A stretch of DNA of 7,784 nt, from IMG/VR virus record IMGVR_UViG_2648501498_000001; one strand, written 5' to 3'. This stretch comes from a virus (lineage: Monodnaviria; Loebvirae; Hofneiviricota; Faserviricetes; Tubulavirales; Inoviridae). A program made the position numbers and the translations under genes. The first letter of the stretch is position 1; each line of letters opens with the position of its first letter. Positions 1 to 7,784 of this stretch are shown here, piece after piece. The notes beneath the pieces were generated by a model. The model did no database searches and was not told where the DNA came from. It saw only the letters and a program-made list of their open reading frames with translations.

Positions 1-33
1 GTGCGCATAATGTGACACGCGTTATGTTGAAAA
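1..33 (+). other. dif-like Xer recombination site (site 1); window begins inside it
   Basis: Sequence GTGCGCATAA-TGTGACACGCG-TTATGTTGAAA. As I recall it, E. coli dif is GGTGCGCATAA-TGTATA-TTATGTTAAAT. The XerC-arm-like and XerD-arm-like blocks are conserved, but the central region is 11 nt instead of 6. Confidence 0.5.
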
Positions 34-64
34 GGCCGCTGCGATACTTTCCACCGCAGCGGCC
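34..64. other. Perfect GC-rich stem-loop between the two dif-like sites
   Basis: GGCCGCTGCG (34-43) pairs perfectly with CGCAGCGGCC (55-64); 11-nt loop 44-54; flanked by AAAA (30-33) and TTTTT (65-69). Could also act as a bidirectional intrinsic terminator. Confidence 0.6.
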
Positions 65-66
65 TT

Positions 67-92
67 TTTATACATAACGCCATTGTGCGCAC
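67..92 (-). other. dif-like Xer recombination site (site 2), inverted relative to site 1
   Basis: Reverse complement of 67-92 is GTGCGCACAA-TGGCG-TTATGTATAAA: the same XerC-like arm (one mismatch) and TTATGT XerD-like arm, with a 5-nt central region. In single-stranded form 1-33 can pair with 67-92, giving matched arms and an unpaired central bulge. Confidence 0.45.
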
Positions 93-102
93 TGTTGTGT
101 AT

Positions 103-243
103 TCAGTCGTTGCTTCTGTTGATTTTATTGTGTGCCCTCAGGACGATTGGCAACACTATTGTTATGACGCTGAACAAAAACATGCCGAACAGACTACCGG
201 CAATCAGGTATTTCATTAGTAAATCCAGAATCATGTCGTGCAT
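103..243 (-). CDS. Hypothetical small hydrophobic protein (46 aa), weakly supported
   Basis: Minus-strand ORF read by hand: MHDMILDLLMKYLIAGSLFGMFLFSVITIVLPIVLRAHNKINRSND. One predicted TM-like segment; no convincing Shine-Dalgarno; below the ORF-track size cut-off. Confidence 0.25.
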   Translation of the reverse strand: MHDMILDLLMKYLIAGSLFGMFLFSVITIVLPIVLRAHNKINRSND

Positions 244-476
244 GGTTTTTCTGAGCTGATGTTGTTAATCCTGTCGAGACTCTACATTCCTTTAGCTATT
301 TTTTAAATCGTATTTTCGTATCCGAGACGCCAGCACGCCGATGAAGAAGATAAGGGGAGGAGGACGGAGGAACGCCAGCCGCACCCGCCCGCAGGGTCGA
401 GGACGGGAGCGCCTGCCGTGACGACGGACGACAATCACGATGATGATGATTCTTGGCGTGTTTGGGCAGGGATAAA

Positions 477-526
477 CCCCCGTCTTGTAACACGGGGGTA
501 GAGTCAACGGAAACTCAAGGGTTTCC
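477..526 (-). terminator. Candidate terminator hairpins downstream of the minus-strand regulator gene
   Basis: Hairpin 1: CCCCCGT (477-483) / ACGGGGG (492-498) with 8-nt loop; on the minus strand it is followed by TTTAT. Hairpin 2: GGAAAC (509-514) / GTTTCC (521-526) with 6-nt loop. They could instead be origin or packaging hairpins. Confidence 0.35.
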
Positions 527-4893: not shown

Positions 4894-4910
4894 TAATCAG
4901 GTGGTGAATT

Positions 4911-5198
4911 ATGTTTGCCATTTTTATTGCTGCAATAAATACTGCTCTTGGTTTTATTTTTCGTACTGCACTCATTAAGTTTGTAATGTTCTCTGCAATT
5001 TATATTATGGTTGTAGAAGTTCTTCCGTTGATTGTGACTCATCTTCCTGATGGTAGCAGTATTTCCTCGCTTTTTTCAGAGTTGCCTTCTTCTGTTTTGT
5101 GGTTTCTTAATCTGATGTCTTTTGATGTTGTTTTGCCCATGATGGTTTCAGCCATGTTTACGCGTTTCTTTATACGCCGTATTCCATTCTTTAATTAA
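4911..5198 (+). CDS. Minor coat protein (gpVI-like; Ace-position) membrane protein
   Basis: 95 aa, strongly hydrophobic with multiple TM-like segments. RBS AGGTGG; sits between the pIII-like and pI-like genes, as Ff gene VI and CTXphi ace do. Confidence 0.65.
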
Positions 5199-5209
5199 GA
5201 GGGTGATTT

Positions 5210-6268
5210 ATGGCTATTACTGCATATATTGGCGTGCCGGGTTCTGGCAAATCTTATGAAGTGGTTAAGTCTGTTATTATTCCGGCTGTTGCATCCGGCC
5301 GAAGGATTGTCTCAAATATATACGGACTGAATCATGAGGCAATCATTCAGTATTGTTATAAAAACAAACTGATAAGTGATGATATTTCACCAGGTGAAAT
5401 CATTCATGTTGAAAATGAGCGGGTTATGTCCCCTGATTTTTATCCGGTTAATGGAAATCAGGATAAATCACTCTGCCAGCCAGGTGATTTAATTATTCTC
5501 GATGAGTGTCATCGTTTTTTTACATCAGATAAAGCTTTGTCATCTGATGCCCGTATCTTTGCTGCCGAGCATCGCCATTATGCTGATGAAAAAACGGGGC
5601 AAACCTGCGACCTTGTTCTTATTAATCAGGCATTGACAACGTTGCCTCGCTTTCTTCGTGAGCGTATTGAGCAGACTTTCAGAATGAAAAAACTGATTGG
5701 TCTTTCTCATAAAAGTTATCGCGTTGATGTTTTCGACGGTTCCAGAACCACAAAGGCAACGCATCTTTCAAATTATGTCTGCCGTTACAGTAAAGATATT
5801 TACCCGCTTTACAGCTCTCATGATGTTAAGGGAGCGGTGGAAACAAGAACTGACGCAAGGGCGGTTTTGTTTAAACCGCAGGTTATTCTTTTGTTTATTT
5901 TTCTTATATTGCTTTCTGTTTATCTCTTCTTTAGTTTTCTTTTGCCTTTTTTTAATCCGCAGAAAAAAACAGAACAGGCACAGCAGTCAGCGCCGTTACG
6001 TTCTTCGCCGTCTTCGCCGTCGGTTAATGTTTCGCCTTCACCGGAGAATAAAACCGCTCCTGCGCCTTCTCAAAAGTGGTGCGTAATAGGGCGTTTTAAT
6101 GACGGGGACCGGAACTATGTTTTTCTGCGCGATACGGATAATCGCCTTCGTATGGTTTCCGCAAATAAATTCAGGGGGCTGAATATTATGCTTGAGGGAG
6201 AGGTGGACGGCGTGAAGGTTGTTGCATGGTCCTGTAATAATCCGGTTTCTTTCAGGGGGCAAAAATGA
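5210..6268 (+). CDS. Assembly ATPase (gpI / Zot family)
   Basis: 352 aa. N-terminal Walker A GVPGSGKS (residues 8-15); Walker B-like LIILDECH; single TM segment [24 protein letters not shown]; Pro/Ser-rich periplasmic C-terminal region. RBS GAGGGTG. Stop overlaps the secretin start (ATGA). Confidence 0.85.
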
Positions 6269-7524
6269 AACTGATCACCGTATTCTTTTCATTTGTGCTT
6301 TTATCATTTTTTTCTCCGGCTTATGCCGTTTCAGAAAGTGAGGCACGACGTGTGGAGATGTCAATGGACAATGCGCCTTTACCTCAGGTTATCAGCATGG
6401 TCTGGCAACGGGTTTTTAATCGCCCTTATCAGTTGTCGCCGGATATTGCAGGAGACACAAGACTTGTCAGTTTCTATCTGAGTAAAAATCAGGAGCCGCG
6501 AAGCTTTTTTATTTCATACCTTAAACGCCTGAATATCAGCGTCACGTCGATGAAGGATGGCGTGGATTACATTTCAGTGATAAAGCAGACTGAGCAGAAA
6601 GTGCCTGATGTGGTTTTTACTTATCGCCCTAAATACCGCAGCGTGAGTTATTTATCGGCAATGCTTAACTCTGTGGTTTCTTCCGGGGCTTTCAGTAATC
6701 ATATTCAGTCCGTCGATTATTTGTCTGGCGGTGTGTCAGGTATAACCACGACAGACAGTGCATCGACGCGTATGTCGATCGCAACGGATGCCGAAGTGCT
6801 GGTTTATTCCGGTCCGGCAGCATCCGTCCGGCAGATAGAAAAAATACTGCCGCGTATTGACGTTCCGGCAGAGCAGGTAACGGTGAGCGGCTATGTTCTT
6901 GAAGTCCAGACGACAGACCGCAATGCAACCGGACTGCAAATTATTGCTGATTTGTTCCGTAATAAACTGGGGATGTCTGTGGGGGCTCGTCTTGATGGGG
7001 GTAATTCGTTTACGCTGAATGTTGGAGGGCTGAATGCGTTTTACAGTCTGATCAAAGAGGATTCACGCTTTAATGTCGTGAGTAATCCGCGTCTTACGGT
7101 GCTTTCCGGCAGTAAGTCGCAGTTTACTGTGGGTCAGGAAGTTCCGGTGCTGGACAGTGTCAGCTATCAGGGCAGCAGCGGAACGCCAGTCCAGTCTGTG
7201 ACATACAGGAACAGCGGGGCGATTTTTACAGTAACGCCGGTTGTGCTTGACGGACTGATAACACTGGATATCAGCCAGCAACTGAGCGATTTTGTAAAGA
7301 CAACGACAGGCGTTAACTCCAGCCCGACACTGACGAAGCGGGAAATCAGCACAAAGGTTGATGTTAAGGACGGTGAATTACTTGTGCTTGGTGGCCTTGC
7401 CAGCAGTAAGCTGACGCAGTCGCGGACAGGTTTTTCATTTTTGCCGGGTTTTACAGGCAAATCAGACGAGAATAACCGGACGGATATAATTGTGGTGCTT
7501 CAGGCTCGCAGGGTTGGCAAATGA
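6265..7524 (+). CDS. Secretin (gpIV-like) outer-membrane export channel
   Basis: 419 aa. Signal peptide ending AYA|V. C-terminal secretin-type motifs: [25 protein letters not shown] and [23 protein letters not shown]. Last gene of the operon, as in Ff. Confidence 0.9.
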
Positions 7525-7640
7525 TGCCGCAACGCGGCATGTAAGGCGGCATGATGATGTTTCATGTGATGCAGCTGCCTGACCGCCGAAGCCAGGGAGA
7601 AATTACAGAGCAGCAGGAGACAGCGCAACGCGCTTCCTGC
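7524..7640. other. Non-coding region with two hairpins sharing a CGCAACGCG core
   Basis: Hairpin A: ATGCCGC (7524-7530) / GCGGCAT (7534-7540), loop AAC. Hairpin B: GCAGG (7613-7617) ... AGCGC (7622-7626) AAC GCGCT (7630-7634) ... CCTGC (7636-7640). Neither has a T-run. No ORF in 7525-7784. Confidence 0.4.
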
Positions 7641-7784
7641 CAGGCCGCTTTTAAAGGGCAGCTATCGAGACGAACGACGCAAGGCGTGAGTCGTCCATGC
7701 ATTGATGTGGCCAGTTGATGAAATTGATGGGTTACAGCAATTCTGGTGATGACTGGCCTTCGGTTTTCATCAGTCCTGATAACA

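Follow-up and report, generated by a model that had tools for sequence, protein, structure and literature searches.

A 7784-nt stretch that is probably one complete unit of a dif-integrated filamentous prophage of Escherichia coli

Is a filamentous phage genome that looks intact also a functional one, and how would it join the chromosome of its host without an integrase of its own? These questions are raised by IMG/VR record IMGVR_UViG_2648501498_000001, the whole 7784-nt stretch of which was analysed here (hereafter the window). We conclude that the window is very probably one complete genome-length unit of a temperate, dif-integrated, Inoviridae-type filamentous prophage of E. coli, and we consider below whether the prophage is active, how it would integrate and where it stands among known filamentous phages.

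Gene content, ends and chromosomal junctions

The six-frame list of open reading frames (ORFs) places 11 tightly packed genes on the plus strand, namely orf65 (935-1132), the gene for the replication initiator Rep (1132-2328), the gene at the gene V position (2338-2673; hereafter the gV-position gene), orf57 (2678-2851), the coat gene (2854-3102), orf56 (3237-3407), the genes for pIII (3412-4893), pVI (4911-5198), pI (5210-6268) and pIV (6265-7524), and orf55 (7551-7718), against two small genes on the minus strand. Taken together with the domain matches, this list gives an intact gene set in the canonical inovirus order on one strand. The hallmarks of a filamentous phage are present: a rolling-circle initiator of the Rep_trans family in a 7784-nt unit (the class spans 5-12 kb) with nearly all genes on one strand, a pI/Zot-type ATPase, in which a Walker A motif is combined with a single transmembrane segment, and a small coat protein, made with a signal peptide, the core of which is hydrophobic and the C-terminus basic. 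Because matches at curated domain thresholds stand in the canonical inovirus gene order, we dismiss a chance origin. A preliminary description of this DNA had reported intact ORFs in the morphogenesis operon, with ribosome-binding sites and overlapping stops and starts, and this is borne out: Shine-Dalgarno-like motifs precede eight genes (those for Rep, the gV-position protein, the coat protein, orf56, pIII, pVI, pI and pIV), orf65 and Rep share a TAATG, and pI and pIV an ATGA, in which the stop of the first gene overlaps the start of the second, and the remaining intergenic gaps measure 2-17 nt, save for one of 134 nt 3' of the coat gene. Apart from the phage genes and overlapping artefacts, the six-frame list contains no ORF of at least 100 aa, and neither the list nor domain searches revealed a recombinase or integrase among the ORFs of the window.

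The window starts at the second base of a XerC arm and ends at the first base of the next XerC arm, and therefore corresponds to exactly one phage unit. No dif site with up to three mismatches lies inside the window, the site being divided between the window ends. The association with dif, also part of the preliminary description, is confirmed by relatives of 99.2-99.7% identity that sit at dif; in both arrays examined, those of the O166:H15 strain JNE070796 and of strain AST20, the element adjoins hipA as two head-to-tail copies. In the tandem relative, the left junction (attL) reads GGTGCGCATAA / TGTGACACGCGTTATGTTGAAA, the junction between the copies ...cctgataac AGTGCGCATAA / TGTGACACGCG... 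and the right junction (attR) ...cctgataac AGTGCGCATAA / TGTATATTATGTTAAAT, with TGTGAC... following the exchange point at the left and internal junctions. The XerC arm carries the chromosomal G at the left junction and the phage A at the internal and right junctions, and the right junction restores a near-perfect dif, such that a dif with one mismatch (AGTGCGCATAATGTATATTATGTTAAAT) lies 3' of the last copy in the tandem lysogen. These sequences put the predicted exchange point where the XerC arm meets the central region, and they agree exactly with what a single XerC-side exchange would leave, namely a hybrid attL and, at attR, a functional dif, the catalysis itself being a prediction.

Functional phage or decayed remnant

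The preliminary description also took the element for a functional phage. Intact ORFs, purifying selection and the tandem arrays of relatives suggest that it is one, without amounting to proof. The ORF lengths equal those of independent RefSeq copies, the sole difference in length being the in-frame Gly-X linker of pIII. In comparisons with relatives of 92-96% identity, the ratio of non-synonymous to synonymous substitution rates (dN/dS) was 0.03-0.06 for pVI, 0.04 for pIV, 0.05 for Rep, 0.07 for pI and for the gV-position gene, and 0.10 for the C-terminal domain of pIII. Strong purifying selection acts across these genes (dN/dS 0.03-0.11), and the prophage is probably active, as far as its sequence can tell.

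The genome is also a mosaic. Bases 1-2677 (attP, an accessory slot, the control region, Rep and the gV-position gene) are ~95% identical to another dif prophage, here called the E24377A type (L002), which is hosted by enterotoxigenic E. coli (ETEC) E24377A and by bovine strains and the virion genes of which are unrelated to those of the window, save for a 43%-identical secretin. Bases 2672-7729 (the small coat proteins to pIV, plus orf55) are ~99% identical to an inovirus with an IS110-family transposase (L003), which also carries a large 'replication endonuclease' and sits between hcxB and ybiB, not at dif. With its breakpoint between the gV-position gene and orf57, the genome is, judged from these alignments, a recombinant of two modules, one per known E. 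coli inovirus type. One virion and export module thus occurs, at 99% identity, behind a Xer/dif hairpin and behind an IS110-family transposase, which amounts to module swapping within one species.

Alternatively, the prophage could be defective or domesticated, with genes that look intact, no infectious particles and mere persistence at dif. A number of observations lean towards this alternative and away from an active phage. By megablast, the whole window occurs in only 13 of 5426 complete E. coli genomes (98.5-99.7% identity, all 13 human-derived), and no circular record of this lineage, as a replicative form would give, was found among the complete E. coli genomes. Sister copies show decay: in two genomes an IS21-family element is inserted in the secretin gene, and in JNE070796, the closest complete genome (NZ_AP041805.1, L001 11852-11989; window ~2874), a T6/T7 homopolymer difference puts the start of the coat gene out of frame in both tandem copies, and PGAP annotates a spurious antisense ORF there in place of the gene. 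The shorter T-run could be an error in sequencing the homopolymer, or else genuine variation; the window keeps an intact T7 run, as do AST20 and L003. The pIII linker, encoded by an 18-bp tandem repeat (4453-4556) that specifies Gly-Thr/Ser/Ala dipeptides, is the shortest of the copies compared, with 18 dipeptides in the window versus 34-55 in 10 other copies, always in frame and with the C-terminus intact; either the repeat expands and contracts rapidly, and has truly contracted here, or it collapsed in the source assembly. Weak points of another kind are that the plus-strand nick site of Rep was not located, that a repressor or immunity role for the leftward 70-aa protein and a role in binding single-stranded DNA (ssDNA) for the gV-position protein are presumed from gene position only, and that the GC-rich core of the non-coding region 327-564, proposed below as a minus-strand origin, folds significantly on the minus strand only (z -3.0) and not on the plus strand, which is no neat match to that idea.

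Set against the defective prophage are the full length of all genes in the window, which match several independent copies, and the dN/dS values given above. Furthermore, both arrays examined are tandem doublets, as repeated or ongoing integration of ssDNA would give, and the same virion module is found at another site together with another replication and integration module, which points to recent mobility. Overall, we consider a defective or domesticated prophage unlikely and prefer the reading of a complete and probably active phage.

A more distant relative with the same attP type (pI 43% and pIV 41% identical) is a 7439-bp circular replicon. Since tandem copies give the same product as a circle, an outward polymerase chain reaction across the ends cannot prove a circular form. 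Separately, a circular 'plasmid' of 9613 bp in JNE25-005 (NZ_AP045060.1) is an inovirus of the E24377A type with ISEc31 and many fragmented ORFs, and represents either a replicative form captured by the assembly or a low-accuracy assembly.

The attP hairpin and the route of integration

When the ends of the window are joined, they form an attP of two inverted dif-like sites, the second, inverted one lying within bases 1-94. On the plus strand, the attP/attL region (1-98) and the right end of the unit (7780-7784) fold together to give a forked hairpin of 38 bp (-43.6 kcal/mol, z -11.3). At the right end, 'taac' lengthens the stem of the hairpin, and the phage XerC arm (AGTGCGCATAA) opens with the final 'a', the rest of the arm occupying 1-10; there follow the central region with a 6-nt bulge (11-21), the XerD-like arm TTATGTTGAAA (22-32), an inner stem with T-runs on both strands (30-68) and the inverted XerD-like and XerC-like arms (69-94). 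One part of the stem is formed by the XerC arm and its inverted copy, the bulge TGACAC falls in the short central region and the XerD-like arm pairs further in.

Covariation was assessed on nine distinct versions of attP, taken from a range of E. coli dif elements and from a circular relative. Across the nine variants, 97.4% of the structure is paired, versus 28-54% when the partners are slid, and there are seven compensatory pairs; none of 500 shuffles reached these values. In the L013-type variant, the inner stem is wholly different and two changes within the XerC arm are compensated. Since compensatory changes occur in the XerC-arm and inner helices across divergent elements, we infer that the hairpin itself is under selection. 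The inner stem (30-68) probably also serves as a bidirectional terminator of the rightward operon and of the leftward hyd46 gene, and a part in packaging, like that of the Ff hairpin after gene IV, is speculation by analogy.

These features are those of a CTXphi-type Xer-integrating element (IMEX), since the prophage sits at a chromosomal dif without its own recombinase and its inverted dif-like sites fold on the plus strand. In CTXphi, XerC alone exchanges one strand between the folded attP(+) and dif (PMC3089051), and the attP sites of CUS-1 and Ypfphi show the same CTXphi-type features (PMC3089051, PMC4266046). The occurrence of one attP hairpin design, with compensatory changes, in several otherwise unrelated E. 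coli inoviruses extends the CTXphi ssDNA model to E. coli on the evidence of sequence.

Integration through a double-stranded replicative form, in the style of VGJphi or TLCphi, rather than as a folded single strand, strikes us as improbable. The duplex junction does hold a XerC arm, 11 bp and then a XerD-like arm with 9/11 matches, and the first three central bases (TGT) agree with dif on the XerC side. However, the 11-bp spacer differs from the canonical 6-bp central region, and the inverted second site is kept with compensatory changes across divergent elements, which is expected only under selection for the hairpin. In addition, Rep and the layout are CTXphi-like, and the published analysis of the CUS-1/Ypfphi attP arrived at the ssDNA model (PMC3089051).

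Under integration as a folded single strand, the life cycle would run as follows. By analogy with CTXphi, incoming plus-strand ssDNA would be recombined with dif by the host XerCD in a single XerC-catalysed exchange, the product of which would be fixed by host replication; the duplex left junction would then no longer be a Xer substrate, making integration effectively irreversible. Progeny plus strands would be produced by the RstA-type Rep, again as in CTXphi, through rolling-circle synthesis across tandem copies or from a replicative form. The complementary strand would begin at the non-coding region 327-564, the ssDNA would be coated by the product of the gV-position gene (2338-2673), and the filament would be extruded through the envelope by the ATPase pI and by pIV, the secretin that the phage itself encodes, while coat proteins are added. 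Immunity would be set by the leftward 70-aa gene and a pair of GCGCATGCG copies that flank the rightward promoter.

A second type of attP hairpin, set apart by another inner stem and by compensated changes in its XerC arm, was seen in three IMG/VR relatives (L014 4928-5206, L015 4564-4801, L013 5527-5693). It lies ~140-185 bp upstream of a window-type hairpin in L014 and L015, an arrangement which suggests that different IMEX elements are stacked at one dif; in L013 it is followed, about as far downstream, by a plain dif-like site.

Individual genes and comparison with other filamentous phages

The non-coding region 327-564 (plus strand) is built from a core rich in GC (338-452) and a segment of two hairpins (455-564), and consists of DNA that is common to tiny plasmids. 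A nearly invariant stretch of 75 nt in the core (~357-430) also occurs in a 2012-bp plasmid with an HUH Rep, in a 2751-bp RepL plasmid and in plasmids of 98-110 kb, and the two-hairpin segment recurs in 2-2.7 kb plasmids of E. coli, E. albertii, Salmonella and Citrobacter. The 2751-bp RepL plasmid resides in AST20, a strain that also carries this prophage. Since the plasmids with this block encode unrelated Rep proteins, its function is probably host-dependent, perhaps that of a single-strand origin, and we regard the region as a candidate minus-strand (single-strand) origin. A search of Rfam with E up to 1 returned no family, the only match being at chance level and on the terminator hairpin, and no report of the 75-nt core was found in the literature. 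On the minus strand, a hairpin at 478-498 followed by a T-run may terminate the leftward gene. The further idea that 327-564 is a portable ssDNA-replicon module, traded between filamentous phages and 2-2.8 kb enterobacterial rolling-circle plasmids, is highly doubtful; in its stronger form, co-resident mini-plasmids, of which pAST20_3 is one, in a strain with a tandem copy of the prophage, would be converted or even packaged with the phage, as natural phagemid-like hitchhikers.

Just inside attP, the accessory slot holds hyd46 (103-243, minus strand; ORF list), which encodes a strongly hydrophobic peptide of 46 aa that is 100% conserved in JNE070796 (NZ_AP041805.1) and has a 29.5%-identical analogue in the same slot of the E24377A-type phage. 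It matched no Pfam, PHROG or NCBIfam family, and could be an exclusion, maintenance or toxin peptide. The region homologous to hyd46 is cut by IS3 in a 98-kb plasmid. The divergent 70-aa gene in the rstR position (585-797, minus strand) belongs to phrog_2503 (E 1.5e-27), a family of unknown function, and its product is 100% identical in the E24377A-type phage. Its AlphaFold2 (AF2) model is a helical hairpin (predicted local distance difference test, pLDDT, 80) without a PDB match of E below 3.8, and a sequence search of the PDB gave nothing meaningful; a ribbon-helix-helix fold, considered as a candidate, is unsupported by this model, which has no significant fold match. Between this gene and orf65 lies the divergent control region (801-934), with the best sigma-70-like promoter of the window (872-901, plus strand; 10/12 matches), although the genome-wide count of such promoters is no better than chance. 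The promoter is bracketed by two copies of GCGCATGCG (861-869 and 904-912; 0.09 expected), a pair conserved in the E24377A-type relative, the leftward protein of which is identical, and these copies are candidate operators.

The rightward operon opens with orf65 (935-1132; 65 aa, phrog_3104, unknown function), the stop of which overlaps the start of Rep (1132-2328). Rep is a rolling-circle initiator of the Rep_trans/RstA type (PF02486, E 1.9e-21; phrog_453, E 4e-107) and is 33% identical (E 3e-60) to RstA of CTXphi across 380 aa. At the gene V/rstB position (2338-2673) is encoded a protein of 111 aa that falls in phrog_14411, a narrow family of unknown function with seven clusters. Sequence searches detected no similarity to RstB or to any PDB chain, and its AF2 model, from a six-sequence alignment, was unusable (pLDDT 36.9).

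The virion module begins with orf57 (2678-2851), a hydrophobic protein of 57 aa with a basic C-terminus that is 96-98% conserved in JNE070796 and L003 and is, in the absence of any family match, a candidate minor coat protein in the role of pVII/pIX. The major coat protein precursor (2854-3102, 82 aa), annotated in AST20 as a 249-nt gene, matches phrog_2186 'virion structural protein' (E 5.6e-14) and, below threshold, Pfam Phage_Coat_B (E 0.007). It has a signal peptide ending in SFA and a mature part of 49 aa that runs from an acidic N-terminus through a hydrophobic core to a basic C-terminus. Within the 134-nt gap after the coat gene lies a Rho-independent terminator on the plus strand (3121-3144; GGGCGG-atatt-CCGCCC followed by T7). 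The Ff phages have a terminator after gene VIII, a position that this one matches. A hydrophobic ORF of 25 aa (MFDFIFMMFGSLCGLCCVIGFKSNL) at 3153-3230, between the terminator and orf56, lacks a clear ribosome-binding site; it may encode a very small membrane protein or minor coat protein, or be noise. The soluble 56-aa protein orf56 (3237-3407), between the coat protein and pIII, is 100% identical in JNE070796 and L003 and matched no family in Pfam, PHROG and further family searches.

The pIII-like adsorption protein (3412-4893, 493 aa) has a signal peptide, an N-terminal domain of ~330 aa, the Gly-X dipeptide linker and a conserved C-terminal domain with a membrane anchor. PHROG matches cover the C-terminus only, a sequence search of the PDB gave nothing meaningful, and the search for homologues was swamped by the low-complexity linker. 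In L013-L015, the region encoding the N-terminal domain (window 3412-4450) is 66-72% identical in nucleotide sequence and the other virion genes 92-94%, which suggests that host-range determinants are diversifying, the N-terminal domain being presumed to bind the receptor. The pVI-like minor coat protein (DUF2523; 4911-5198) matches PF10734 (E 2.9e-9) and phrog_974. In the 260-bp segment between pIV and attP, orf55 (7551-7718; 55 aa, annotated in L003) matched no family but is kept at the same position in inoviruses whose replication modules are of three different kinds (79% in L003, 52% in L017 and 71%, partial, in L002). In L023, the orf55 slot is occupied by a small repressor-like gene (phrog_4268).

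The pIV secretin (6265-7524), the predicted outer-membrane export channel, has a signal peptide and matches PF00263 (E 1.9e-25), Secretin_N (PF03958) and phrog_1012 'protein IV of M13' (E 1.8e-116, covering 12-400 of 403). It aligns in full length with the cryo-EM (cryogenic electron microscopy) chain of f1 pIV (7OFH, E 3e-18, residues 33-414), and both the C-domain and the N-terminal periplasmic domains of a pIV-type secretin are present, with the start overlapping the stop of pI. An own secretin had been put forward as setting the element apart from CTXphi, which uses the host secretin EpsD. The secretin is indeed there in full length, but it is not distinctive: one is found in Ff, IKe/UPphi, Ypfphi and every other E. 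coli dif inovirus examined, and CTXphi is the exception. Ypfphi encodes both a Zot homologue and a secretin (YPO2280/GspD2; PMC10354491), so possession of a secretin is no distinguishing feature.

The pI assembly ATPase (5210-6268) belongs to the Zot family (PF05707, E 1.7e-22; phrog_197, E 2e-76), as the preliminary description had it, and has a Walker A motif (GVPGSGKS), a Walker B motif (LIILDE), one transmembrane segment and a periplasmic C-terminal domain. The link to a toxin, which that description had drawn from this membership, holds at the level of the family only, and an enterotoxin role for pI is unsupported. In the BLASTP alignment with Zot of V. cholerae (25% identity, E 2e-15), the active enterotoxic hexapeptide FCIGRL is placed opposite CVIGRF, with 3/6 residues identical, and pI continues with NDGDRNY, the GRLCVQDG stretch not being conserved. 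That the phage confers virulence on its host, with pI acting as a Zot-like enterotoxin as well, can hardly be credited: the hosts do include human isolates of O166:H15, a serotype of outbreaks in which astA was the only virulence-related gene found, but PF05707 takes in all inovirus pI proteins, ORF list and domain or family searches revealed no accessory toxin gene in the window, and at least one O166:H15 genome entered the list of matches through a small plasmid only, not the prophage. Annotation pipelines label such genes 'GspD', 'zonular occludens toxin' or 'hypothetical', and sometimes omit the coat gene, by which screens for virulence genes may be misled.

Compared with CTXphi (Affertcholeramvirus), the window shares an RstA-type Rep, a divergent gene in the rstR position, the lack of an integrase, a Zot-family pI, inverted dif-like sites in a forked-hairpin attP, dif junctions on the XerC side and tandem arrays. 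Unlike CTXphi, it has a pIV secretin, lacks an RstB homologue and ctxAB or recognisable toxin cargo, has E. coli as its host, and encodes virion proteins that are unrelated or distantly related. With RstA at 33%, Zot at 25%, RstB undetectable and a secretin present, the window is placed by these comparisons outside the genus Affertcholeramvirus.

Ypfphi of Yersinia pestis and CUS-1 of E. coli O18:K1:H7 are, like the window, dif inoviruses of ~8 kb in tandem with an imperfect dif between copies (PMC4266046, PMC10354491). They likewise encode Zot-like and secretin proteins, but their variable accessory ORFs, at both ends, differ from those of the window. Their relatedness to the window in sequence is probably low, the comparison being one of published architecture, and no K1 reference strain appeared among the E. 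coli matches, even in distant mode.

UPphi901, of the Lineavirus group (IKe, I2-2), is likewise a dif-integrated tandem E. coli prophage with reverse-strand accessory ORFs by dif (PMC7307601), and its g3p has a variable Gly-rich repeat like that of pIII in the window (PMC7307601). An IKe-like prophage (L026/L022) has the same attP hairpin type and a secretin of only 25% identity. Lineavirus Rep is of the II/X family, unlike the Rep_trans protein of the window. Lineavirus is marked by ~70% amino-acid identity to IKe/I2-2 structural genes, and among 142 tblastn matches of the window's pI in the phage collection there was no record of IKe, I2-2 or Ff; since UPphi is IKe-like, the window is not UPphi. 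With Ff (f1/M13/fd), the window shares the order of replication, ssDNA-binding, small coat, major coat, terminator, pIII, pVI, pI and pIV, and homology of pIV over its full length. It differs from Ff in that it is temperate, with predicted Xer-dependent integration, and has another Rep family and a pIII N-terminal domain without detectable similarity. The E24377A-type prophage was itself considered as UPphi or CUS-1 and rejected as either, its pI being ~32% identical to Ff pI, with no match at the level of IKe and no K1 hosts.

The Rep lineage occurs in 33 of the 5426 genomes. Homologues of pI fall into three bands, of 80-93% identity in other E. coli, 53-58% in Salmonella, Klebsiella and E. 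coli, and ~41-43% in Serratia, Proteus, Pasteurella and others. IMG/VR record UViG_2645727901, a computational record, corresponds to window 585-7718 at 99.4-99.7%. Compared by megablast with 50,697 phage records, the window as a whole matched nothing, the best protein matches in those records were to uncultured gut inoviruses (35-39%), and neither megablast nor tblastn found a close isolated phage in GenBank. A scan of genome contigs with pI found no relative and no Yersinia locus, and one with Rep found Photorhabdus only (46%). In the literature, papers on O166:H15 and astA included, no description of this phage was found. The lineage is already present in IMG/VR and is an addition to the small set of enterobacterial dif inoviruses (CUS-1/Ypfphi, UPphi). 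Current understanding is not overturned by these results; the more interesting leads are the shared attP hairpin, the virion module that spans Xer- and transposase-dependent phages, and the non-coding block common to tiny plasmids.

Other dif inoviruses with the same hairpin (L019-L024, L026, L027) carry differing reverse-strand cargo beside attP, examples being DUF2726, DUF2971 with an MltR-family regulator, and a protein of the STM4504/CBY_0614 family. Attributing the attP-like hairpins by DUF2971, STM4504 or DUF2726 genes to non-phage IMEX was rejected, as wider views showed these to be accessory genes of complete inoviruses. The cargo next to attP may represent exchangeable accessory genes, possibly for defence or addiction. 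In one such dif inovirus, a gene for an antitoxin of the HigA family lies close to the right end.

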